Shown: piece after piece, positions 1 through 12,518 of the stretch
How positions within the stretch are numbered: the stretch's first letter is position 1
How the letters are laid out: each line of letters opens with the position of its first letter
IMG/VR virus record: IMGVR_UViG_2579778842_000009
Source of the DNA: a virus
Taxonomy: Duplodnaviria > Heunggongvirae > Uroviricota > Caudoviricetes
Strand: one strand, 5' to 3'
DNA length: 12,777 bases
Notes under the pieces: model-generated
What the model saw: the letters and a program-made list of their open reading frames with translations, nothing else
The model's database searches: none
What the model was told of the DNA's origin: nothing
Translations under genes and position numbers: made by a program

Positions 1-238
1 TTTCACGTTCCAGCTCTTTCAGACGCTGACGTTCAGCGCTGGTGAGCCCACCATCACCGCCCCCGGTATCCCGCTCATGCTGGCGAACCCAGACACGCAG
101 AGTCTCCGGCGTACAGCCAATCTTTGGGGCAATGGAACAAATTGCCGCCCACTGTGAGTCATATTCATCCTGACTTTCCAGAACCATACGAATCGCCCGC
201 TGACGGACTTCGGGGGAAAAACGAGTATTTTTAGTCAT
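1..238 (-). CDS. IS3-family transposase OrfA (HTH DNA-binding subunit), N-terminal 79 codons; 3' part lies outside window
   Basis: Reverse-strand translation from ATG at 238: [79 protein letters not shown]. This is the typical IS3-family OrfA N-terminus, with a GAGG ribosome-binding site about 9 nt upstream. Confidence 0.8.
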
Positions 239-292
239 CCTGTTTACCTCTTTCTCAGGGAGTTTAGTCTCCAGGATTTCCGGGGCGGTTCA
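1..292 (-). mobile_element. IS3-family insertion sequence (IS629/IS1203/IS3411-like), left end only; continues beyond window start
   Basis: Minus strand from 292 reads TGAACCGCCCCGGAAATCCTGGAGACTAAACTCCCTGAGAAAGAGGTAAACAGG then ATG of orfA. The TGA-initiated terminus and the orfA leader match my recollection of the IS629/IS1203 left end. The boundary at 292/293 is inferred from where IS30-like coding sequence begins. Confidence 0.65.
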
Positions 293-640
293 GTCTCAGT
301 AAATCAGGCTCTTACCGACAAATTCCTGAGTTTACCGTCAGAACTCAGAAAATCACTGACATGGGACAGAGGAATGGAACTGGCCAGACATCTAGAATTT
401 ACTGTCAGCACCGGCGTTAAAGTTTACTTCTGCGATCCTCAGAGTCCTTGGCAGCGGGGAACAAATGAGAACACAAATGGGCTAATTCGGCAGTACTTTC
501 CTAAAAAGACATGTCTTGCCCAATATACTCAACATGAACTAGATCTGGTTGCTGCTCAGCTAAACAACAGACCGAGAAAGACACTGAAGTTCAAAACACC
601 GAAAGAGATAATTGAAAGGGGTGTTGCATTGACAGATTGA
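293..640 (+). pseudogene. IS30 transposase, C-terminal fragment (N-terminus missing due to IS3-family insertion)
   Basis: Frame is open from 293 with no start context. Translation VSVNQALTDKFLSLPSELRKSLTWDRGMELARHLEFTVSTGVKVYFCDPQSPWQRGTNENTNGLIRQYFPKKTCLAQYTQHELDLVAAQLNNRPRKTLKFKTPKEIIERGVALTD matches the IS30 transposase C-terminus as I recall it. Stop TGA at 638-640 lies inside the inverted repeat. Confidence 0.8.
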
Positions 641-1322
641 ATCTACAGCGGCTTTCTTTAATGATTGTTCGGCGGATATGATCGCTCCAGGTATCCCGGC
701 GATTATTGCTGCCACGGGTGAGGTAATATTCCGCCAGTTGCTCGTCATACTGCGCCAGTGCGCCTTTATCCAGCGGTTGATAGCTGTTTTCATGCACCAA
801 AATGGAGGCCGGTAAACGCGGCTTAAGATCCGGATTATCCGCAGGCCAGCCAAGGCACAGCCCAAACAGCGGCAGAACATGCTGCGGTAATTTAAGCAGT
901 TTCGTCACCGCTTCAATATTATTGCGCAGGCCGCCGATATATACCCCGCCCAATCCCAGCGATTCCGCTGCGATTAATGCATTCTGCGCCATCATTGCCG
1001 TATCAACGACACCGAGCAACAGTTGTTCCGCCAGGCCGAGCTGAGCATCCGGACAGATCTGTAAATGGCGGTTAAAGTCGGCACAGAACACCCAGAACTC
1101 CGCCGCTTGCGCTACGTGTTTTTGCCCGCCGGTCAGCGTCACCAGTTCTTCACGTAACGCTTTGTCGGTAATGCGAATAATGCTACTGCACTGCAAAAAA
1201 CTGGAACTGGACGTCGCACGGGCGCTGTTAATAATCGCCTCACGCTGCGCTTCGGAAATGGGTTCATCAGTGAAATGGCGAATGGAGCGATGGCCACAAA
1301 TAAGTTCAATGGTTGGCGTCAT
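591..1322 (-). CDS. nfsA: Oxygen-insensitive NADPH nitroreductase NfsA, 3'-truncated by IS30: native sequence to about codon 225 (648-1322), then 18 IS-derived codons to a stop at 591
   Basis: Translation MTPTIELICGHRSIRHFTDEPISEAQREAIINSARATSSSSFLQC...TWSDHIRRTIIKESR is E. coli NfsA. After KESR the native C-terminus (PFILDYLHKQGWATR as I recall it) is replaced by CRFNLSMQHPFQLSLSVF, read from the IS30 inverted repeat. Confidence 0.85.
   Translation of the reverse strand: MTPTIELICGHRSIRHFTDEPISEAQREAIINSARATSSSSFLQCSSIIRITDKALREELVTLTGGQKHVAQAAEFWVFCADFNRHLQICPDAQLGLAEQLLLGVVDTAMMAQNALIAAESLGLGGVYIGGLRNNIEAVTKLLKLPQHVLPLFGLCLGWPADNPDLKPRLPASILVHENSYQPLDKGALAQYDEQLAEYYLTRGSNNRRDTWSDHIRRTIIKESRCRFNLSMQHPFQLSLSVF
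622..647. repeat. IS30 right terminal inverted repeat
   Basis: Sequence GTGTTGCATTGACAGATTGAATCTACA on the + strand; its reverse complement begins TGTAGATTCAATCTGTCAATGCAAC. nfsA coding sequence resumes immediately at 648. Confidence 0.6.
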
Positions 1323-1593
1323 TATCTTTTTCTCTTTCTGAACGTGAATATTGCGGTGGACGGTTCATCAGCTGTGGGGCAAGACGTTTTGCCACCTGAA
1401 GAATAACCACCACCGCAGCGGGAAGCATGAGCAAAACACCGAGAAAAATCATCAGAATCTGCACTTCTGGCCGAGAAAATGGCTCAGGCAGCGACAGGGA
1501 GTCGCTTACCGACAGCAGCGCCACCGCCAGTAGCATCATTCCGATAAATTCCAGTATCAACACGCCTTTAGGCAATTTACCGATCGCGCGCAT
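1306..1593 (-). CDS. ybjC: Small inner-membrane protein YbjC (DUF1418), first gene of the ybjC-nfsA operon
   Basis: 95-aa ORF MRAIGKLPKGVLILEFIGMMLLAVALLSVSDSLSLPEPFSRPEVQILMIFLGVLLMLPAAVVVILQVAKRLAPQLMNRPPQYSRSEREKDNDANH with two hydrophobic helices. Its stop overlaps the nfsA start, as in E. coli. Confidence 0.85.
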   Translation of the reverse strand: MRAIGKLPKGVLILEFIGMMLLAVALLSVSDSLSLPEPFSRPEVQILMIFLGVLLMLPAAVVVILQVAKRLAPQLMNRPPQYSRSEREKDNDANH

Positions 1594-1752
1594 ACGCTTC
1601 CCTCTGCAAAGTGAGCCTTCAGTCTAAAACTTTTCACTGTATTGTGTTTAACAGTTATAGCTTTTAGCAATTAATGCAACAGGTTAAACCTACTTTCAGC
1701 GAATACATTTTAGCGTGATCATTACAGGCATAAATCTATGAGGAGAGAAATA
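1594..1752. promoter_or_regulatory. Divergent promoter region for ybjC-nfsA (minus) and grxA (plus)
   Basis: 159-bp AT-rich spacer between divergent starts. grxA is a known OxyR-regulated gene in E. coli; I did not map a specific OxyR site or the -10/-35 elements. Confidence 0.4.
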
Positions 1753-2010
1753 ATGCAAACCGTTATTTTTGGTCGTCCGGGTTGCCCTTACTGTGTGCGT
1801 GCAAAAGATCTGGCTGAGAAATTGAGCAATGAACACGATGATTTTCAGTATCACTATGTAGATATTCGTGCGGAAGGGATCACTAAAGAAGATCTACAAC
1901 AAAAGGCAGGTAAACCCGTAGAAACCGTGCCGCAGATTTTTGTCGATCAGCAACATATCGGCGGCTATACCGATTTTGCTGCATGGGTGAAAGAAAATCT
2001 GGACGCCTGA
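1753..2010 (+). CDS. grxA: Glutaredoxin 1
   Basis: MQTVIFGRPGCPYCVRAKDLAEKLSNEHDDFQYHYVDIRAEGITKEDLQQKAGKPVETVPQIFVDQQHIGGYTDFAAWVKENLDA with CPYC active site. GAGGAGAG ribosome-binding site lies 5 nt upstream of ATG 1753; the longer ORF from 1738 (MRREI...) is probably not the true start. Confidence 0.9.
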   Translation: MQTVIFGRPGCPYCVRAKDLAEKLSNEHDDFQYHYVDIRAEGITKEDLQQKAGKPVETVPQIFVDQQHIGGYTDFAAWVKENLDA

Positions 2011-2019
2011 TCGTCTGAC

Positions 2020-2052
2020 AAGCCCTCGCGTTGAGGGCTTTACTGATTTTTT
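2020..2052 (+). terminator. Rho-independent terminator after grxA (hairpin shared with the convergent ybjM 3' end)
   Basis: Stem AAGCCCTC (2020-2027), loop GCGTT, stem GAGGGCTT (2033-2040), followed by TACTGATTTTTTCTG. The T-run is present only on the + strand. Confidence 0.6.
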
Positions 2053-2417
2053 CTGTGCTGTGGTTTAAACAAACTACTGATAAATAAGAAACACAGTGCC
2101 CCCAGCGCACACCAGAACACCGCACTTAATAACCATGCCAGCTCTTGCCAGAATGAGCGCGTCGGTGAAAAAAACAGCCGCATAATGAGCATCGAACAGG
2201 GTGCCGCCAGCATTGCGCCAAACAGAGGTTTCAGGACTTCTCTACGCTGTGAAAAGAAGCTGGCGACTGCTCCAGGAAGAATGAAAAATAGCAAGCCGAT
2301 TTCAGGATGCCCGGCAGCCCGAAAAGCGCCTTTCATGTGCGTCGCCAGAAAAAGGCACACCACAATGAAGAGGACAAAACAGCAGATTGCCCCCGCCCAA
2401 CGTTGTTTATGTTTCAC
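2040..2417 (-). CDS. ybjM: Inner-membrane protein YbjM
   Basis: 125-aa hydrophobic ORF MKHKQRWAGAICCFVLFIVVCLFLATHMKGAFRAAG... matching E. coli YbjM, in the conserved position between grxA and ybjL. Confidence 0.85.
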   Translation of the reverse strand: MKHKQRWAGAICCFVLFIVVCLFLATHMKGAFRAAGHPEIGLLFFILPGAVASFFSQRREVLKPLFGAMLAAPCSMLIMRLFFSPTRSFWQELAWLLSAVFWCALGALCFLFISSLFKPQHRKNQ

Positions 2418-2686
2418 TCGTTCCTCCTGACACTGCGTCTATCGAACACATTTTTCGCCAGTGTGGCGTTCAGTAAGATAAAGCCGCTTCGCATTCCATG
2501 CTAATATAGGCCAACGCAATTCATATAGCCGTTGATACCTAATGTGATTACACTAGTAAAATATATTGTTACTTTACTATCGTTTAGGTGCGCTGAATGA
2601 ATCTGCGCCCTGAATTCTGGTAAAAAACATTATCGTAAATTACCATTTCTTTCAACAGCTTACTAGTAAACAAGAAGTTAGCCTCC

Positions 2687-4372
2687 GTGAATATAAACGT
2701 CGCCGAATTGTTAAATGGGAATTACATTCTGTTATTATTTGTGGTCCTCGCGCTTGGGCTATGTCTCGGAAAGTTACGACTTGGTTCGATCCAACTGGGT
2801 AATTCCATTGGCGTTTTAGTCGTATCGCTGTTATTAGGCCAACAACATTTCAGCATTAACACCGATGCGCTTAATCTTGGCTTTATGCTGTTTATTTTCT
2901 GTGTTGGGGTTGAAGCCGGACCGAACTTTTTTTCCATTTTTTTTCGCGATGGGAAAAATTACCTAATGTTAGCACTGGTGATGGTTGGCAGTGCGCTGGT
3001 GATCGCCTTAGGGTTAGGTAAGCTGTTTGGCTGGGATATTGGCCTGACGGCCGGTATGTTAGCAGGCTCTATGACGTCGACACCGGTTCTGGTCGGTGCT
3101 GGCGATACACTGCGTCATTCCGGCATGGAAAGCAGGCAGCTCTCACTGGCACTGGATAATCTGAGCCTCGGGTATGCCTTAACCTATTTAATCGGTCTGG
3201 TGAGTTTGATTGTTGGTGCGCGTTACTTGCCGAAATTGCAGCATCAGGACTTACAGACCAGCGCCCAGCAAATCGCCCGCGAACGTGGCCTGGACACTGA
3301 TGCCAACCGTAAGGTTTATTTACCGGTGATCCGCGCCTATCGCGTCGGCCCGGAGCTGGTGGCCTGGACCGACGGCAAAAATCTGCGTGAACTGGGTATT
3401 TATCGACAAACCGGCTGCTACATTGAACGTATTCGACGTAACGGGATTCTGGCAAATCCAGACGGTGATGCCGTGCTACAAATGGGCGATGAAATAGCGT
3501 TGGTAGGCTATCCCGACGCCCATGCCCGACTCGATCCCAGCTTCCGTAACGGTAAAGAAGTTTTCGATCGTGACCTTCTCGACATGCGTATCGTCACTGA
3601 AGAAGTGGTCGTTAAAAACCATAACGCTGTAGGTAAACGTCTCGCACAACTGAAGTTGACCGATCACGGTTGCTTCCTTAACCGCGTCATTCGTAGCCAG
3701 ATTGAGATGCCGATAGATGACAACGTCGTGCTTAACAAAGGTGACGTTTTACAAGTCAGCGGTGATGCCCGTCGCGTAAAAACCATCGCCGATCGCATCG
3801 GCTTTATCTCGATTCACAGCCAGGTCACTGACCTGCTGGCATTTTGCGCCTTCTTTGTTATTGGGCTGATGATCGGGATGATCACCTTCCAGTTCAGCAC
3901 ATTCAGTTTCGGCATGGGGAACGCTGCCGGGTTGTTATTCGCCGGAATTATGCTGGGCTTTATGCGTGCTAACCACCCGACCTTCGGTTACATTCCGCAG
4001 GGTGCATTAAGCATGGTGAAAGAGTTCGGCTTGATGGTGTTTATGGCAGGCGTTGGTCTGAGCGCCGGTAGCGGTATTAATAACGGCCTGGGCGCGATTG
4101 GCGGTCAGATGTTGATTGCCGGATTGATTGTCAGTCTGGTGCCCGTGGTTATCTGTTTCTTGTTCGGTGCTTATGTATTGCGAATGAACCGCGCGCTGTT
4201 GTTCGGCGCAATGATGGGCGCACGTACCTGCGCGCCGGCAATGGAGATCATCAGTGATACAGCTCGCAGTAACATCCCGGCGCTGGGCTATGCGGGCACC
4301 TATGCAATCGCCAACGTCCTGCTGACGCTGGCAGGGACAATCATCGTCATGGTATGGCCAGGATTAGGATAA
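2687..4372 (+). CDS. ybjL: Putative transport protein YbjL (AAE-family transporter with two central TrkA-C/RCK-C-like domains)
   Basis: 561-aa ORF with GTG start ([29 protein letters not shown]...), hydrophobic N- and C-terminal halves and a soluble middle, matching E. coli YbjL. Confidence 0.9.
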
Positions 4373-4484
4373 AACTGAAGTTGCCCTGAAAATGAAATTT
4401 TTTTGCACAACCGCAGAACTTTTCCGCAGGGCATCAGTCTTAATTAGTGCCACTGCTTTTCTTTGATGTCCCCATTTTGTGGAG

Positions 4485-4530
4485 CCCATCAACCCCGCCA
4501 TTTCGGTTCAAGGTTGATGGGTTTTTTGTT
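4485..4530 (+). terminator. Candidate rho-independent terminator downstream of ybjL, on the host side of the prophage junction
   Basis: Perfect 10-bp stem CCCATCAACC (4485-4494) and GGTTGATGGG (4512-4521), followed by TTTTTTGTT. The 17-nt loop is long but can form an inner CCG/CGG pair. Confidence 0.5.
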
Positions 4531-4607
4531 GCCTGAAATTTAAGATGTTTAAAATCATGATGTTAGAAGCACTGTTTTTTAACGATGGCGACAAAATGGC
4601 GGCAGCG

Positions 4608-4826
4608 TCAAAGAGAGAGCGCCACCTGTCCTGATTTCATTGGATGCGGCTGAACTGGATTCGACTCTTTTGGTGTTGCAATCGAACGAACAAAAGTTTC
4701 ATGGGTAACAAAAGTATGGCTGCAGTTAATGTTCTGGCACTGGTTATAACGCTCTTTGGTCAATGAAGATACCTGAAAACTGCTGCGAGTATGGGCGGCA
4801 CTTCCACACAGTGGGCAAATCATCAT
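4608..4826 (-). CDS. ogr: Ogr/Delta-family zinc-finger late-gene transcriptional activator
   Basis: MMICPLCGSAAHTRSSFQVSSLTKERYNQCQNINCSHTFVTHETFVRSIATPKESNPVQPHPMKSGQVALSL has the CxxC...CxxxxC zinc finger and resembles P2 Ogr (72 aa). GGGGAGA ribosome-binding site lies about 9 nt upstream of ATG 4826. The longest ORF extends to 4859 (MNLAKMGRTRK...) but that extension is probably untranslated. Confidence 0.8.
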   Translation of the reverse strand: MMICPLCGSAAHTRSSFQVSSLTKERYNQCQNINCSHTFVTHETFVRSIATPKESNPVQPHPMKSGQVALSL

Positions 4827-4863
4827 TTTTCGAGTTCTCCCCATTTTTGCTAAATTCACAACA

Positions 4864-4890
4864 ATGATACCGTATTATTCCATTTTGCAA
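4864..4890 (-). promoter_or_regulatory. Candidate sigma70 promoter for ogr in the D-ogr spacer
   Basis: Minus strand reads TTGCAA, 15 nt, TATCAT within the 57-bp gap between the D stop and the ogr ORF. Spacing is suboptimal, so this is weak. Confidence 0.25.
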
Positions 4891-4916
4891 ACTTAAAAGT
4901 TCTCCATTGCGAAGAA

Positions 4917-6017
4917 TCATTCCATTTCGAAATCATCAATCCTCACTTCAAGCTCCAGACTGGTCGTAAAACCGTTATCCGGGCTGACGGTATGTGTCAG
5001 GGTGGTAATGGTCCATTCCGCATCATCTATCGGCTGTTTAAAACCACTGACCTTCACAGACATTTCCGTGTAGAGATCTGCCCGCCCTTCTGCCAGTTGT
5101 AGAGAAAATGACGCAACGCCGCGTTGCAGGCGTTCCCACTGCATTTTCGCCGCTCGTTCGGCGTTGCTCCGGTTGGCATAGGTGCGATTAAGTACCAGCA
5201 CGTTTTCATCCGTACCCACCAGGTAATCGCCCTGCTTCGCTTCTGGCTCTTTCTTCTGCTTCTTAGTTCTGCGCTTACGCTTCACCGTGGTGCTTTCTTT
5301 CTTCGCAGGTTCGCGGGTATGCAACCAGCTGGCAATTACGCCCGTGTAGGCTCCGCGATCTGCCAGGGTAAATCGGTGACTGTCGCCGTCCTTGCGTGTG
5401 ATAGTGATCACTGGCAGAGGTTTACCAGTGGCGCTTTTGCCCTGCCCCTGCCGGATGAATAACAGATTGCCATTTTTCACCGACGCGATGGCACCGTACT
5501 GTCTCGCCAGCCGCATCAGAAAACTGCCGTCACTCTCATTAGTCTGGTCTATATGCTCCACGGGCTTATCCGACAGGTCTTTACCCAGTGCCATCTTCAG
5601 CTTGTGCCGCGCGGCAATTTCCTGCACCACTTCCCCGACGGTGGTCTTATGCCACGATTTTTCACGGCGGGTATTCAGCGTTTCCCGAAAATCAGCACTT
5701 CGCGCCCGGATAGTCAGGCGGTCCGGTGCGCCAGTGTGTTCAATCTCGTCCACTGTGAATGCCCCTTTCGGGAAAAGCGGCTGCCCCTTCCAGCCCAGCG
5801 CCAGCGTAATGACCGCACCACGGCGCGGCAGCACGATTTTTCCGTCAGCGTCATCCAGCTCCAGATCAAGCTGGTCCGCTTCAAAGCCCCGGTTATCCGT
5901 CAGCGTCAAACTCATCAGGCGGTTATCCAGCACAGTGGTGATATCCCTGCCCTCAATACTGATGCTGAATGCGGGAGTTTTGTTGCCTTTGTTAAGCAGT
6001 TCAGAGCTGAAATTCAC
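4917..6017 (-). CDS. D: P2 gpD-like tail protein (phage late control gene D family)
   Basis: 366-aa ORF immediately upstream of ogr and overlapping the U stop by 4 bp (ATGA), in the position and about the size of P2 D (which I recall as about 387 aa). Confidence 0.8.
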   Translation of the reverse strand: MNFSSELLNKGNKTPAFSISIEGRDITTVLDNRLMSLTLTDNRGFEADQLDLELDDADGKIVLPRRGAVITLALGWKGQPLFPKGAFTVDEIEHTGAPDRLTIRARSADFRETLNTRREKSWHKTTVGEVVQEIAARHKLKMALGKDLSDKPVEHIDQTNESDGSFLMRLARQYGAIASVKNGNLLFIRQGQGKSATGKPLPVITITRKDGDSHRFTLADRGAYTGVIASWLHTREPAKKESTTVKRKRRTKKQKKEPEAKQGDYLVGTDENVLVLNRTYANRSNAERAAKMQWERLQRGVASFSLQLAEGRADLYTEMSVKVSGFKQPIDDAEWTITTLTHTVSPDNGFTTSLELEVRIDDFEME

Positions 6018-6499
6018 GACAGCAGCCCTCCCACCGTTTTACTGATATCGCTTAAGGCAGACGTTGCCGTGTCCTGCAGATTATTCAGTTGCGCACTGAG
6101 ATCACCGAACATATCGGACAGGGATTCATCCACTCGTTTGAGCGACAGGGTGAACTCAATCCGGCGCGGCATACCGTCGCGGAAAAACTCCGTTTTAGTC
6201 TGATTCAGTCCCTCAATCACATACATACCGTAAATCGTGCCGCTGCCTTCAATCAGGGGCCATGCTTTCCCCTGTTCTGCCATCTGCTCCAGTGCCAGCA
6301 ACGACAGCCTGCCGCCTGTTATCTCCGGCATAAGAACACCGGAAAGCGTCAGCATGTCGTTTTCCGGTCCCAGAAACTGCGTGGACGGACGTCGGTTTAC
6401 CCGACTGTTTGCCGCATGTCGCCAGCTGCGTTGATACTGCAGTTCCTGATACGGCACGGTGCGCAGCATAAACACGTACAATCCCAGCACCATCATCAT
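6014..6499 (-). CDS. U: P2 gpU-like tail protein
   Basis: 161-aa ORF between T and D with ATGA overlaps at both ends; size matches P2 U (which I recall as about 159 aa). Confidence 0.8.
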   Translation of the reverse strand: MMMVLGLYVFMLRTVPYQELQYQRSWRHAANSRVNRRPSTQFLGPENDMLTLSGVLMPEITGGRLSLLALEQMAEQGKAWPLIEGSGTIYGMYVIEGLNQTKTEFFRDGMPRRIEFTLSLKRVDESLSDMFGDLSAQLNNLQDTATSALSDISKTVGGLLS

Positions 6500-9400
6500 G
6501 CGTCGTATCCCCCCTGATCGCTGTAGTTACTCCTGGCTTTTGCCTTCAGCCTGCGTTCACGTTCATCAAGCTGGCGTGCCACCTCCCGAGCAATATCCTG
6601 CGCACTTTGTCCTGGCTGCGTCTGAATGATGATCTGCGTCGGTACCTCAATCCGTTGAACGAGCGGCACAGTGGCTGCGCGACTCACAATTGCTTCTCCA
6701 CCTTTCGCGGGGAGTGCCAAAGGGTGCAACGGTGGAAGCTCTGCTGGCGCGGCAGCAACGCCCATCATTCCGGCAACAACGGCAGCCAGTGCAGCTGTAT
6801 TTCTCCGGCTGGTCACATTTGCCGGGCCGTTAACAATTTCCGGCCCGTTTTCACCGACGATGCCAAACTGCCCGCGCGGGATATACCCGCCGCTGTCATA
6901 CATCCCCGCAAAGCCATACCCCCATGACGGAAAACCACCCGATGGCATCATCACTTTACCGTCTGCATTCACCGTCGCAGGTTGCTGACGCGTCACGCTT
7001 TCCGGCAGTTTTGCCTTTGCGGCCTCTTTACTGACAATGCCAAGTTTCTCCAGCAACCAGGAAACGCCGGATTTCAGGGAGTCCAGCGGATGCATGACCA
7101 TATTCAGCCCTTCCGCCAGTGCCTCTCCGAATCGCCGCCCCATTGCCGCTGCACTCTGCAGTTCGGCAGAGGTCGACTTAACGGGCGTCAGCAGATCAGT
7201 AAACCAGCCCCACAGCGCCTGTACTTTGTCGCCAATCCACTGGAACACGGGCTTAAGCGGTTCGAACGCTGCACTGACGGGACCTGCCGCCGCTTTGAAT
7301 CCTTCCACCACGCCACCAAGAAATGCGGTGATGGGTTGCCAGTATTTCCAGACAACCAGCGCCACGCCCGCCAGTGCAGTAACCACAAGACCTATCGGAC
7401 TGAGCAGAGCACCTAACAGACCAGATACGGCATACAGGGCAACGCGCAGCATCGCCAGTGGACCAGATGCCAGTACTCGCAGCACCGTGCCTGCGGCGAC
7501 CAGTCCACCGCGCAGTACCGACAGAGGATTCATAAACATCACAGCAACAGCACGTAAACCGGATAATCCAGACCGCAAAAGTGCAACCGGCGCACCTGCT
7601 ACAGTTTTCAGGGCATTTCCCGTCAGTGATGCCGTGCGGCGCAAAGACGACAACGGCGCAGTAAGTAAACCTGCTGCGTTGCCCGATGAAGCAAACCCGC
7701 GTCGCAGCAGTGCCAGTGGAGCGCCAGCCAGCCAGGACAACGCGCTGCGGGTTCGGGTTACTGCTGCCGTAACGGAAGGTAACGTTTTGATACCCAGCAC
7801 AGAGAATCCCAGACGGATCACTGCCAGCGGCCCCAGCACTGCAGCCAGCGCCACCGCTAAGGTTCCGAGGCCTACGGTAACCGCAGCCACCACAGCGGCT
7901 ACTTTCATCAGTGTGCCTGTCAGTTCCGGGTTAGCTTCCACCCAGCGGCGCAACGCCCCCGTGATGCTTTTCACCGTGTACAGAATATCCATCAGCGGCT
8001 GGCGCAGCGTTTCGCCCAGGCTGCTGAAGGTGTTCTGCGCTCCGGTTTTGACCAGCAACCACTGCGCAGAAAGTGAGTCCTTGTTAATGTCGGATTCTTT
8101 CTGCATGGAGCCGAGCGCATCATTGCCCGCTGTCAGTTTTAGCTGGCGCTGCAGTTCCGGCAGGTTGTTTGCCAGTTTCGCCGCGTCATCGCCAAACTCT
8201 TTACCAAACAACATGGTCATGGCAGACAGACGTTTATCCTGCGGCAGTGCGTTCACCTTCTCCAGTACGCGCTGGATAGTTCCCATCGCATCCTTCGTCA
8301 TCTGCTTTTCAATCACTTCAGGATTGAGTTTCAGCAGATTCATCCCTTCAAAGAAACTCTTGCTTTGCATGGTGGCAATGGACAATTCACGCACCATCGC
8401 GTTTGCTGCACTGGCTGCAACCTCCGGCGCAGCACCCAGAGTCAGGAAGGTGGAACCCAGTGCCGCCGCTTTACGATAATCCAGACGGTCAGCCACACCG
8501 CCCAGACGTTGCATCACATCGATGATGTCCGCCCCTTTCGACATGGCGTTATCATCCAGATAGTTCAGCGCATCGCCGAGCTGTTCAATATTGCGGGTAG
8601 GTATTTTGTAGAGCTGGGCGATTTTCCCCAGACTTTCTGACAGTTCATCCGCTGGCAGCTCAAAGGCTGTTGCCGCCTTTGCTGCCGTACTGGCGAAGGC
8701 CAGCAGGTCACGTTTCTGGTCTTCCCAGCTGTCGTCAGGGTTTGCGACGTTCATGCGCGCACCACCTTCAACCAGTGCAGCGAAGTCCACCGCACCGTTT
8801 TCCATCGGCAACTGTTCGCTGGCAGCCTTGATGGCATCCTGCATTTCATAAAAACGTGCAGTGCGGTTGCCATTATCGTCACGCAGACCATTGACCTGCT
8901 TTGCCACACCTTTCATGGCATCTTCCATGCTGGTATAGCTTTTTACTGCCGCCATCACTGGCGCACCCATTGCCAGCCCTGCAGCCGTGGTAGTGGCTCC
9001 GGCTCCTGCGATGCGATCGCGCACTTCAAGCCGTCTTGAGTATTGTTCTCTGGCAGCGTTCATCCGTGCCTGTTGTTCACCCAGACGTTTAAGTGCTTTT
9101 TGCTGGCCCTCCAGTGCCTGCCTTGTTTCTTCAGCATTTTTCTTAAGTTCTCGCTGGGCACTACTGAGTTGTCTGGTATCAATCCCTGATTCTTTAAGTG
9201 CCTGACGTTGTCTCTGGACCGCCCCCAACAAGCCGTTATAGGTCTGCTGAAGTTCCTGTACTCGTGTTTTGGCCTGACTGAATAACTTTGCCTGCGCGGC
9301 GGTTGGCCTGTTAGTGGCAGCAAATTGTGTGGCGAGTTTTGCCGCCTCTTCGCGGGCTGCGTTCAGGTTGTTGGCTGTTATGGCTAGTTGCGAGCGCGTC

Positions 9401-9573
9401 TTGCGAAATTCATCAATTCTGCCAGCCTGCTTATTCAGTTCTTTGAGGCTGTTTCGGGTATTCTGAATTGCGCCAGCCAGCTCTTTCGAACTGGCCTGTG
9501 CAGCACGGAATGGGCGGGTGAGTTTGTCAACCGCATTAAGAATGACCTGCAGGCGCAGGTTATTATCACTCAT
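6496..9573 (-). CDS. T: Tail tape measure protein (gpT-like), 1025 aa
   Basis: N-terminal coiled-coil-like Ala/Gln/Arg/Lys-rich region, a central run of Gly/Ala/Leu-rich hydrophobic segments, and a Gly-rich C-terminus; located between E/E' and U. Confidence 0.85.
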   Translation of the reverse strand: MSDNNLRLQVILNAVDKLTRPFRAAQASSKELAGAIQNTRNSLKELNKQAGRIDEFRKTRSQLAITANNLNAAREEAAKLATQFAATNRPTAAQAKLFSQAKTRVQELQQTYNGLLGAVQRQRQALKESGIDTRQLSSAQRELKKNAEETRQALEGQQKALKRLGEQQARMNAAREQYSRRLEVRDRIAGAGATTTAAGLAMGAPVMAAVKSYTSMEDAMKGVAKQVNGLRDDNGNRTARFYEMQDAIKAASEQLPMENGAVDFAALVEGGARMNVANPDDSWEDQKRDLLAFASTAAKAATAFELPADELSESLGKIAQLYKIPTRNIEQLGDALNYLDDNAMSKGADIIDVMQRLGGVADRLDYRKAAALGSTFLTLGAAPEVAASAANAMVRELSIATMQSKSFFEGMNLLKLNPEVIEKQMTKDAMGTIQRVLEKVNALPQDKRLSAMTMLFGKEFGDDAAKLANNLPELQRQLKLTAGNDALGSMQKESDINKDSLSAQWLLVKTGAQNTFSSLGETLRQPLMDILYTVKSITGALRRWVEANPELTGTLMKVAAVVAAVTVGLGTLAVALAAVLGPLAVIRLGFSVLGIKTLPSVTAAVTRTRSALSWLAGAPLALLRRGFASSGNAAGLLTAPLSSLRRTASLTGNALKTVAGAPVALLRSGLSGLRAVAVMFMNPLSVLRGGLVAAGTVLRVLASGPLAMLRVALYAVSGLLGALLSPIGLVVTALAGVALVVWKYWQPITAFLGGVVEGFKAAAGPVSAAFEPLKPVFQWIGDKVQALWGWFTDLLTPVKSTSAELQSAAAMGRRFGEALAEGLNMVMHPLDSLKSGVSWLLEKLGIVSKEAAKAKLPESVTRQQPATVNADGKVMMPSGGFPSWGYGFAGMYDSGGYIPRGQFGIVGENGPEIVNGPANVTSRRNTAALAAVVAGMMGVAAAPAELPPLHPLALPAKGGEAIVSRAATVPLVQRIEVPTQIIIQTQPGQSAQDIAREVARQLDERERRLKAKARSNYSDQGGYDA

Positions 9574-10002
9574 CGTTGGCCCCGCTTCTCTGAATCGCTT
9601 TATACCGCCATTCCAGCACTTCGGTCAGCGGCATAACGTCAGTAACGGATGGCGGCCAGTGAAAGATGGTGGCGATATCAGCCACCAGATCGTCAACCGT
9701 CAGGCTGTCGGTAAACCGGCAAGCACCGACTTCTTCAACAAAAAAGTGACAACCTCAACCGACATGGCAGTGAGATCTGCCGGGTCCATCTCTGCAATTT
9801 CCTGTGCAGTCAGTGCCGGACTGGAGATGCGGGGGATCACGGTCATCATCGCGTTCACATCCATATCCATAATGGCCTGCAGGCGTGTACCGCGCAGCGC
9901 ACCGGACTGCGGTTTACGCAGCACAATTTCGGTAATTTCTGTTTTACCGCGCTTGATAGGGGTATCCAGTTGAATGGTCTTTTCAGTCTGCTTATCACTC
10001 AT
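9566..10002 (-). CDS. E+E': Tail assembly chaperone E+E' fusion made by programmed -1 ribosomal frameshift
   Basis: Slippery heptamer T_TTT_TTG in the E zero frame (+ strand 9739-9745). The -1 frame stays open for about 59 codons (...FFVEEVGACRFTDSLTVDDLVADIATIFHWPPSVTDVMPLTEVLEWRYKAIQRSGANDE) and stops at TGA 9566-9568, overlapping the T start ATG by 8 nt. Confidence 0.65.
9700..10002 (-). CDS. E: Tail assembly chaperone gpE (zero-frame product)
   Basis: 100-aa ORF MSDKQTEKTIQLDTPIKRGK...VEVVTFLLKKSVLAGLPTA with an AGGA ribosome-binding site 8 nt upstream; sits between FII and T as in P2. Confidence 0.8.
   Translation of the reverse strand: MSDKQTEKTIQLDTPIKRGKTEITEIVLRKPQSGALRGTRLQAIMDMDVNAMMTVIPRISSPALTAQEIAEMDPADLTAMSVEVVTFLLKKSVLAGLPTA
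9739..9745 (-). other. -1 frameshift slippery site TTTTTTG for E/E'
   Basis: Minus strand reads GTC ACT TTT TTG TTG, an X_XXY_YYZ heptamer in the gpE frame located 13 codons before the E stop. Confidence 0.65.
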
Positions 10003-10027
10003 TTTGTTGTCCTGTAAATTGGGTTCT

Positions 10028-10045
10028 GGCGCGGAATCCCGCGCC
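10028..10045 (-). other. Intercistronic GC-rich stem-loop between FII stop and E start
   Basis: GGCGCGG, 4-nt loop, CCGCGCC: a perfect 7-bp stem beginning 11 nt after the FII stop. No T-run follows on the transcribed strand. Confidence 0.4.
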
Positions 10046-10056
10046 GTTCAGATACA

Positions 10057-10572
10057 TCAGAGGCCGAGGGCGTTGCGGTGCGCTTCCATCAGGTCCACAC
10101 CGTCCACAATTTCCACCATGTTGATAAGGTCCACTTCATAGAGCACCTCACCATTGATGGTCAGCTTCGCGTAGCTGTTGGTACTGGTCACTTTGGTGGT
10201 GTTGCTTTCGCCCGTCTTCCACTCACCGGAGTCCACTTCTTTGTGACGTCCACGCACCACAAGCTCCACGGCCTGCACTTCCCCGGTATCGTCACGCTGG
10301 ATAGAGCCGGTAAAGCGCAACTGGATGCCATCCACCGTGGCTTTGCCCATCTGCTTAAACAGCAGCAGTTCAGTGCCACCAATGGAAAATTCTGTGTCCA
10401 GCGCACTGTCATCAAGCCCCAGATCCACATCCACTGCCCCCGGCATTCCGCCGCCGCGATACTTCTCATATTTGCGGGTGAATTTCGGCAGCGTCAGCGA
10501 CTCAACGATCCCCTGCCAGTTGTTCCCGTCGTTAAACAGGTTCAGGTGTTTTAATTTGCGTGGTAAAGCCAT
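10057..10572 (-). CDS. FII: Tail tube protein (gpFII-like)
   Basis: 171-aa ORF MALPRKLKHLNLFNDGNNWQGIVESLTLPKFTRKYEKYRGGGMPGAVDVDLGLDD..., matching the size of P2 FII (which I recall as about 172 aa); lies 9 bp downstream of the FI stop. Confidence 0.9.
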   Translation of the reverse strand: MALPRKLKHLNLFNDGNNWQGIVESLTLPKFTRKYEKYRGGGMPGAVDVDLGLDDSALDTEFSIGGTELLLFKQMGKATVDGIQLRFTGSIQRDDTGEVQAVELVVRGRHKEVDSGEWKTGESNTTKVTSTNSYAKLTINGEVLYEVDLINMVEIVDGVDLMEAHRNALGL

Positions 10573-10581
10573 GTTGTCCCC

Positions 10582-11754
10582 TTACGCGCTGACCTGGCTG
10601 GCGAAATTCACCAGGTACTGATCGGTGATGCGCTGACGCAACATCAGGTTTTCAAGTGGCGGCACTGGCGTGTAGTCGTAGTCGATGGTGAGTTTTCCGG
10701 CTTTCAGAGTGTCTTTGTCGTTCACCGACTCGTCCAGCCAGCAATCACCACCAATGAGATACCCCTGACTGACCAGGCTGCGCATTTTGGCGCGGATGCC
10801 CTCGATAATGTCGCGCGCCAGCGACGGGTTCAGCGGTTTGTCCACTGCCCACATGTGCGCTTCTGCCATTGTGTCCGTCAGCACCTGCGCCGTGCGGGTG
10901 TAGTTTTCGAAGGCAAAGAGCGGGTCATCACTCAGGCAGCGGGAACCCCAGAAGCGGAAACCGTCTTTACGCACAAGCGTGGTGACGTCGTTCTGGTTCA
11001 GCAGACCTGCATCGGTTGCCGGGTCCTGCAGATCCCAGAACACATCTGCAGAAATTCCGGTGACACCGTTCACGCCCACGTTGGACAGGCTTTTGTGCCA
11101 CCCAGTCTGCTCATCAATTTTGGCACGCAGACCAAGCGCACGGGCGGTGGCATATGCCGTTGCTTCGGCATTCAGCACCGTGTCCCAGCCAGTAAAGTCG
11201 GGCCAGATCAGCATTCCTTCGCGCTGGCTGAAGTTTTCACGGTAAGTGATCGCCTCCTGCACCGTCTTGCAGCCATACGCTGACAGGTAAGCAAACCCAC
11301 GCAGGCTTTGCGCCACACTCAGCAACTCAGTAGCAACGGCTTTGTTATCGTGACCTGGCACGCCGAGAATGCGCGGTTTAACGCCGAGCTGTGTCTGGGC
11401 AGATAACAGGGCTTTCATGCCTGTTTTTTTACCTTCAGCAGTCACTGCGCCGATGATATTGGTCGTGGTTTCTTCTTCCGTTTCACCCTGCGGCACACGC
11501 ACAACAACGGTCACGGGTTTTGCCTGGTCAGCGATGGCATCCAGCGAACGGGCCAGCGTGCCGGACTCACCCGCTTTACCGCTGGCAGTCAGCACATCAG
11601 TGATCAGCACGGGTTTATTAAGAGGAAACATTTTTGCATCGGCATCATCGCCCGTGCAGACCATACCCACGATGGCGGTGCTCACCGTGGTAATGGATCG
11701 GGTGCCTTCGTTGACTTCAACAACGCGCACCCCGTGGTGGTAATCCTGAGCCAT
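10582..11754 (-). CDS. FI: Contractile tail sheath protein (gpFI-like)
   Basis: 390-aa [57 protein letters not shown]...[24 protein letters not shown], closely resembling P2 FI. AGGAGG ribosome-binding site 9 nt upstream of the ATG. Confidence 0.9.
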
Positions 11755-11896: not shown

Positions 11897-12463
11897 TCAG
11901 GGGGATTCATTGCTCTTATTTGCCGGAAATTTTCTATAAATTGTGGAAACACCCACATCAAAAATCAGTGCAATACGCTGTCTTGATTCTCCGGCCTCGA
12001 GTAAACGTCCAATCTGTGCCCACTGTTCGGTGGTCAACTTAGGACGGCGTCCACCTACTCTGCCTTTAGCACGAGCTGCAGCCAGCCCCGCCCTGGTACG
12101 TTCAACTATCAGTTCGCGTTCCATTTCAGCCAGGGCCCCCATGACATGAAAAAAGAAACGGCCCATTGGGGTGCTGGTATCAATACTGTCAGTCAGGCTT
12201 CGGAAATTCACGCCACACTGGCGCAACTCTTCTATCAGCGTAACAAGATGCCGCATACTGCGCCCCAACCTGTCCAGCTTCCAGACAACCAGCGTGTCTC
12301 CTGCCGATAGTGTCCTGAGCAGTTTTTTCAGCCCCGGTCTGTCGGACTTAGTGCCACTGATTTTATCCTCAAAAATCCGCTCACATCCCGCGCAGTTCAG
12401 CGCACTACGTTGCAAATCGGTGTTCTGGTCATTTGTTGACACGCGTACATAGCCAATAAGCAT
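11897..12463 (-). CDS. pin: Serine recombinase, DNA invertase of the Gin/Pin/Hin/Cin family
   Basis: MLIGYVRVSTNDQNTDLQRSALNCAGCERIFEDKISGTKSDRPGLKKLLRTLSAGDTLVVWKLDRLGRSMRHLVTLIEELRQCGVNFRSLTDSIDTSTPMGRFFFHVMGALAEMERE... is near-identical in motif content to Gin/Pin, with the catalytic Ser in YVRVST. AAGGAG ribosome-binding site is 6 nt upstream of ATG 12463; the ORF-track start at 12469 directly abuts the RBS and is unlikely. Confidence 0.85.
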   Translation of the reverse strand: MLIGYVRVSTNDQNTDLQRSALNCAGCERIFEDKISGTKSDRPGLKKLLRTLSAGDTLVVWKLDRLGRSMRHLVTLIEELRQCGVNFRSLTDSIDTSTPMGRFFFHVMGALAEMERELIVERTRAGLAAARAKGRVGGRRPKLTTEQWAQIGRLLEAGESRQRIALIFDVGVSTIYRKFPANKSNESP

Positions 12464-12518
12464 GATCATCTCCTTGAATAAAAATCGGGGATGATGCCAG
12501 TTAGTCGTAATCGCTGCA

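Follow-up and report, generated by a model that had tools for sequence, protein, structure and literature searches.

Recurrent IS30 insertion at codon 225 of nfsA in Escherichia coli and its possible bearing on nitrofuran resistance

Nitrofurantoin is a first-line drug against urinary infections, and the loss of nfsA is the usual first step on the way to resistance. A DNA stretch of 12,777 nucleotides that is filed as a Caudoviricetes virus in IMG/VR (record IMGVR_UViG_2579778842_000009; hereafter the window) contains an E. coli nfsA gene whose 3' end has been exchanged for one end of the insertion sequence IS30, which raises the question how this allele arose and whether it still encodes a working nitroreductase. 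The first-pass annotation of the window had described NfsA as intact up to R225 and its last 18 residues (CRFNLSMQHPFQLSLSVF) as foreign material from the right end of IS30, and both statements hold. A sequence search of the PDB aligned residues 1-225 with entry 1F5V and seven further entries with 0 mismatches, and the alignment stops after R225 (Table 1). The IS30 inverted repeat GTTGCATTGACAGATTGAATCTACA at positions 623-647 is identical to the right repeat of intact IS30 copies, and homology to nfsA begins directly beside its end, at position 648. The insertion point thereby lies after nucleotide 675 of the 723 nucleotides of nfsA, within codon R225. The exact 243-residue fusion protein is on record as RefSeq WP_021544783.1. 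Since ybjC, with which nfsA is co-transcribed, is intact, its promoter presumably still drives the fusion gene.

Table 1. Features around the nfsA-IS30 junction, in positions of the window.
Feature	Position	Strand	Remark
Chimeric nfsA ORF, 243 aa	591..1322	-	NfsA residues 1-225 plus 18 IS30-encoded residues; stop TGA at 591-593
Native nfsA codons 1-225	648..1322	-	Protein 100% identical to K-12 NfsA / PDB 1F5V
IS30-derived codons 226-243 (CRFNLSMQHPFQLSLSVF) and stop	591..647	-	In place of native PFILDYLHKQGWATR (helix I)
GC, nfsA nt 674-675	648..649	.	Right copy of the duplicated 2-bp IS30 target; left copy outside the window
ybjC (DUF1418)	1306..1593	-	Intact gene upstream of nfsA; overlaps nfsA start
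IS30 3' fragment (IS30 nt 867-1221, 355 bp)	293..647	+	Right inverted repeat at 623-647
C-terminal transposase remnant, 88 aa, in IS30 fragment	374..640 (ORF)	+	
Left end of IS629/IS1203-like IS3-family element	1..292	-	Interrupts IS30; runs past the window edge

In related genomes the same junction belongs to an intact IS30 of 1221 bp (for example L001, 3139-4359) with the dinucleotide GC on both sides, and on the far side of the element lie the last 45 nucleotides of nfsA, followed by rimK and ybjN. The corresponding empty site was found in strain 2018-06-4CC (L019). It has a single GC at the position where the carriers (L001, L003-L007) read GC-IS30-GC, and the 3800 bp and 1400 bp compared on its two sides match the carrier ETEC1749 with 0 mismatches. 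The nfsA DNA at 648..1322 is likewise identical in the window, in this empty-site strain and in ETEC1749 (L003). The empty-site strain encodes a normal NfsA of 240 residues (end RPFILDYLHKQGWATR); hence, the native C-terminus, which closes with ESRPFILDYLHKQGWATR, is not the one seen in the window, a possibility that the first-pass annotation had named as a potential objection. The comparison of GC-IS30-GC in the related genomes with the single GC in the identically flanked strain L019 shows the nfsA lesion to be a plain transposition of IS30, accompanied by the 2-bp duplication that is typical when IS30 enters a hot spot. IS30 targets nearly palindromic hot spots and duplicates 2 bp upon insertion (PMC9333248). 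Accordingly, IS30 entered a preferred target in nfsA between codons 225 and 226 and duplicated the GC of codon R225, translation passes from R225 into the right inverted repeat of IS30, and the last 15 residues of native NfsA (helix I, PFILDYLHKQGWATR) have given way to 18 unrelated ones. The anatomy of the fusion and the target duplication are both directly visible in the compared genomes.

The allele is not private to the window. When the contiguous presence of window positions 289-1700 in a complete E. coli genome was taken as the criterion, 44 of 5426 genomes were found to carry the same junction. In two more genomes, GF66.2 (L007, 1306-2526) and DX6, IS30 occupies this nfsA dinucleotide the other way round and gives rise to a 246-residue fusion, which brings the directly counted prevalence of IS30 at this site to 46 of 5426 finished E. 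coli genomes (about 0.85%). The tail of the 246-residue fusion also begins with CRFN, as the first 12 nucleotides are common to both ends of IS30. The carriers MS20659, ET201 and MEI003 have nfsA-region haplotypes that are 1.3-1.5% diverged from the window, with the nearest SNPs on either side of IS30 at distances of 41-116 bp, and the IS30 sequence variant differs in each of them. Several forms of the fusion protein are also recorded, namely the exact 243-residue form (P0001) on 611 public contigs, a second one (P0016) on 13 contigs and several rarer ones; the exact 243-residue protein is indexed in 702 blocks. A single clonal insertion spread by descent was also considered, and it was rejected in view of the SNPs beside the element, the different variants of IS30 and the copies in opposite orientation. 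From these comparisons we count at least five independent insertions at the site. Since diverged nfsA haplotypes together with different IS30 variants mean repeated origin, the codon-225 site is an IS30 hot spot.

In this regard, a review, in summarising Whiteway et al. 1998, states that IS30 insertions were found in nfsA among mutants selected with nitrofurans and that the gene has a hot spot for IS30 (PMC11936445), and we infer from this summary that the hot spot described here is the same one. Our literature search for nfsA or nitrofuran together with IS30 returned no description of the nfsA::IS30 allele and none of an IS30 target consensus. Compared with the IS30 hot-spot targeting known from lambda LHS (Olasz et al. 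1998; PMC9333248), the nfsA site is alike in the 2-bp duplication and in the reuse of the same dinucleotide in both orientations and in independent backgrounds. It differs from the LHS-type hot spots in being weakly palindromic, with 5 of 12 symmetric positions, a score that 16% of window positions reach as well and that therefore does not discriminate, and its resemblance to the lambda LHS region is restricted to a loose similarity of A-tracts and T-tracts. The fusion of MS20659, an independent carrier from human blood, additionally has the exchange G66R next to the active-site residue Q67 (P0033). Moreover, IS1 lies inside the nfsA-ybjL stretch in 4 of 60 evenly sampled genomes (H111, H113, H121, H169), and in H121 nfsA is annotated twice, i.e. 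it is split by IS1. Hence, IS insertions in the nfsA-ybjL region look common.

On the left side of nfsA, the window is organised in a different way from the related genomes. IS30 is complete in the 44 related genomes, whereas the window contains just its nucleotides 867-1221, with no left end and no intact transposase gene, and for this reason the remnant cannot excise and is immobile. The terminal repeat TGAACCGCCCCGG... (TGAAC...) of the IS3-family element ends at position 292. Its orfA starts at 236-238, residues 1-79 of the product match PF01527 (HTH_Tnp_1, E = 7e-9), and the element is 99.6% identical to IS1203-annotated copies, with a full length of 1311 bp in the ETEC1749 locus L002. 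An apparent SNP at IS30 nucleotide 866 proved to be the last base of the IS3-family repeat and no polymorphism. The gene rimK was not found in the window, where all DNA to the left of nfsA is made up of 355 bp of IS30 (293-647) and the end of the IS3-family element (1-292). This agrees with the first-pass annotation, which had also proposed that the downstream genes were displaced or deleted. Displacement would apply if the join to the left of nfsA is real, with window 1-647 being the copy from the leuX island; the related genomes keep rimK beyond IS30.

The origin of this left-hand part can be traced to one strain background. Window positions 1-647 are identical (647/647) to a copy of IS30 interrupted by the IS3-family element in the leuX island of ETEC1749, a pig ETEC strain (L002, 5822-6468), and positions 293-7700 match, without a difference, the nfsA locus of that strain (L003), which holds an intact IS30. 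The two IS30 copies of ETEC1749 are 1.11 Mb apart, inverted, and have 355 identical bases in common. Because 1-647 and 293-7700 match two separate loci, the window is a recombinant of ETEC1749-type leuX-island and nfsA loci that came about by inversion, gene conversion or an assembly join. In a real event the nfsA-linked IS30 would carry, or would have recombined with, the IS30 copy interrupted by the IS629/IS1203-like element; in the case of gene conversion, the interrupted IS30 would have been copied into the nfsA site. The last 355 bp of IS30 alone would then stay beside nfsA, the lesion could not be reversed by IS30 excision, and rimK-ybjN would no longer be adjacent.

It might also be that the join between the IS3-family element, the IS30 fragment and nfsA is an assembly chimera over the 355-bp exact repeat, and that the real genome has an intact IS30 followed by rimK, as in ETEC1749. 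The two exact matches to loci 1.11 Mb apart overlap in just this identical IS30 segment, and the join is absent from all 5426 complete genomes. A draft assembly with the same allele (L011, 10676-10770) seemed at first sight to have a deletion beside nfsA::IS30, which was rejected, since a single scaffold N stands 86 nucleotides into IS30 and is followed by unrelated prophage DNA, i.e. it is a scaffold join. The artefact option stays because no finished genome has the join and because of this scaffold N inside IS30. However, the IS30 copies are mutually inverted, which makes a real inversion or gene conversion equally possible, and ETEC1749-type chromosomes are visibly rearranged. We regard a chimera as somewhat unlikely but still as a serious candidate. 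The nfsA-IS30 junction itself is unaffected by this alternative: it is confirmed in 44 finished genomes and is real whichever origin the left-hand join has.

The biological meaning of the insertion depends on the question whether the fusion enzyme works. In crystal structures R225 forms a hydrogen bond with nitrofurantoin, touches most of the bound ligands and is held in place by E99 from the other side of the dimer interface (PMC8286842, PMC9912195), and the foreign sequence starts at the residue immediately after it. Within the replaced segment, F227 is one of eight residues that were treated as active-site positions in directed evolution, where it was individually mutable (PMC7738182). Among 88 enterobacterial NfsA cluster representatives, the mean frequency of the top residue is 96.4% for residues 226-240 versus 87% for residues 1-225, with F227, L232, H233, G236 and R240 being invariant, and the tail pattern P-x-I-L-x-Y-L-x-x-x-G is kept in Frp of Vibrio and, less strictly, in NfrA1 of Bacillus. 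The new tail CRFNLSMQHPFQLSLSVF departs from this conserved hydrophobic/Gly pattern and contains a proline. Matched AlphaFold2 runs (same alignment, monomeric, shallow, sequences 80% or more identical) gave a mean pLDDT of 79.9 with a helix at 226-234 for native NfsA versus 62.9 for the fusion, where residues 226-243 are below 50 and form no helix, although such confidence values are no predictor of stability. Taken together with the conservation and with the position of the junction next to R225, these models make it probable, in our view, that the nitroreductase activity of the fusion is lost or strongly reduced. In the searchable literature no enzyme assay, MIC or other phenotype was found for the 243-residue fusion allele.

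The opposite reading would be a neutral hit in a preferred IS30 target, in which the fusion keeps most of its activity, being changed 15 codons from the end, and persists by drift or hitch-hiking with unchanged nitrofuran susceptibility. Every named active-site residue up to R225 is retained; the ligand and cofactor contacts R15, S41, Q67, K167, R203, R208 and R225 are all present in the fusion (roles according to PMC8286842 and PMC9912195). F227 tolerates substitution, the fusion scores far above the cut-off of the NfsA equivalog model (409.6 bits versus 223), and several lineages inherit the allele stably, with 611 contigs carrying it. A strong target preference is known for IS30, and a hot spot can give recurrent insertions without any selection. 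Nevertheless, no segment of NfsA is more conserved in the Enterobacteriaceae than the replaced tail, whose pattern reaches homologues in Vibrio and Bacillus; the new tail breaks this pattern and introduces a proline, the prediction for the fusion has lower confidence and lacks the terminal helix, and nitrofuran selection yielded IS30 insertions in nfsA, as the review's summary states (PMC11936445). On balance, neutrality seems rather improbable to us. A third reading looks at the neighbouring genes instead of NfsA: the 1.2-kb IS30, whose transposase is antisense to the operon, could uncouple rimK-ybjN from the stress-inducible ybjC-nfsA promoter, and in the window both are even physically separated. 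IS30 lies between nfsA and rimK in all carriers, and rimK is no longer adjacent at all in the window, but insertions occur in both orientations, which speaks against a specific effect as promoter or terminator, and no known advantage of reduced rimK or ybjN came to light. A selected effect of this kind is very unlikely, and it would be compatible with an impaired NfsA and not exclusive of it.

Collectively, the best overall explanation, to which we attach a fair degree of confidence, is a hot-spot insertion of IS30 that left a likely impaired nfsA as a first-step lesion and was later followed by a second event on the left side. The first-pass annotation had called the allele a possible nitrofuran-resistance allele, on the grounds that disruption of nfsA by an IS is well established as a first step towards nitrofuran resistance. 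The latter is correct, an IS30 hot spot in nfsA being among the findings in the review's summary (PMC11936445), and an IS does lie inside the nfsA coding sequence. The label itself is overstated, because in the study of Wan et al. 2021 (PMC8767348) the MICs of isolates with single nfsA lesions did not exceed the clinical breakpoint. A single nfsA lesion, even a null allele, means low-level resistance with a modest rise in MIC, and nfsB usually must be hit too. A first-step lesion of this type would decrease the activation of nitrofurantoin, furazolidone and nitrofurazone and would alone confer low-level tolerance, while clinical resistance would need a lesion in nfsB or ribE in addition. The supplements of Wan et al. 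2021 were searched for IS30, for partial alleles of 675/677 bp and for 243 aa, and nothing relevant was found there.

The allele can be placed beside known systems. In IS-inactivated nfsA mutants (Whiteway et al. 1998, J Bacteriol 180:5529; Wan et al. 2021, PMC8767348) the IS likewise sits inside the nfsA coding sequence, as the first of the two steps nfsA-then-nfsB, and IS30 with a hot spot is named specifically for the mutants of Whiteway et al. in the review's summary (PMC11936445). In contrast to these mutants, the insertion described here is just 15 codons from the 3' end and creates an in-frame fusion of near-normal length without obvious truncation, and it was found in isolates from nature, for the most part of livestock and environmental origin, instead of laboratory selections. 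Compared with the family of NfsA and Vibrio harveyi Frp (PDB 1F5V, 7NB9, 1BKJ), residues 1-225 of the fusion are identical to E. coli NfsA and keep all named FMN, NADPH and substrate contacts; it differs from the family in lacking the conserved C-terminal helix I (226-240), and its profile match stops at position 227 of 240. The mechanism is already known, since IS disruption of nfsA and target-site-specific IS insertion are textbook cases, and nothing here is new in kind. A more far-reaching idea would be that the codon-225 site serves as a mutational switch that livestock E. coli has used repeatedly under exposure to nitrofurans or nitroaromatics, with the fusion being an altered-specificity or low-activity enzyme that is kept by selection and missed by annotation. 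We consider this speculative and quite unlikely; if true, the fusion would be a determinant that is systematically missed in resistance surveillance.

That annotation does not flag the allele is, in turn, a direct observation. PGAP names the fusion "nitroreductase NfsA" without a pseudogene flag, because its score passes the cut-off of 223 of the NfsA equivalog model NF008033 (NCBIfam) despite the missing end; the fusion reaches 409.6 bits and native NfsA 436.4, and the match of the fusion covers profile positions 1-227 of 240 and is not end-to-end. If the fusion is inactive, tools based on gene presence, protein naming or lists of point mutations would miss the allele, while a check of the last 15 residues of NfsA would catch it. 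The practical interest of the allele lies in this concealment by annotation, which may mean a gap in genotype-based resistance surveillance. Regarding its distribution, the allele is recurrent and appears concentrated in pig-associated strains: 16 of the 44 carriers are of pig or pork origin versus 1 of 60 genomes sampled at even spacing from the collection (Fisher p = 1.9e-6), and 9 of 44 versus about 32 of 60 are of human origin. The enrichment in pigs fits livestock selection, though it is confounded by lineage and sampling.

Further along the window, directly after ybjL, follows the tail module of a P2-like prophage (4608-11754) with ogr, gpD, gpU, a 1025-residue tape measure, tail chaperone, tube and sheath, which is present in ETEC1749 and MS20659 and absent in BUCT2930, where rcdA comes after ybjL. 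Elsewhere in the ETEC1749 chromosome (3.14-3.19 Mb, L020), zinT/yodB and potCD are joined via a lambdoid prophage, and the gene order is rearranged compared with K-12; the place where nfsB would be expected from its K-12 distance falls into this prophage. Finally, a serine DNA invertase of 190 residues (Resolvase and HTH_7 domains; 11897-12469, minus strand) adjoins the sheath gene of the P2-like prophage, and its position suggests an invertible tail-fibre segment beyond the window.
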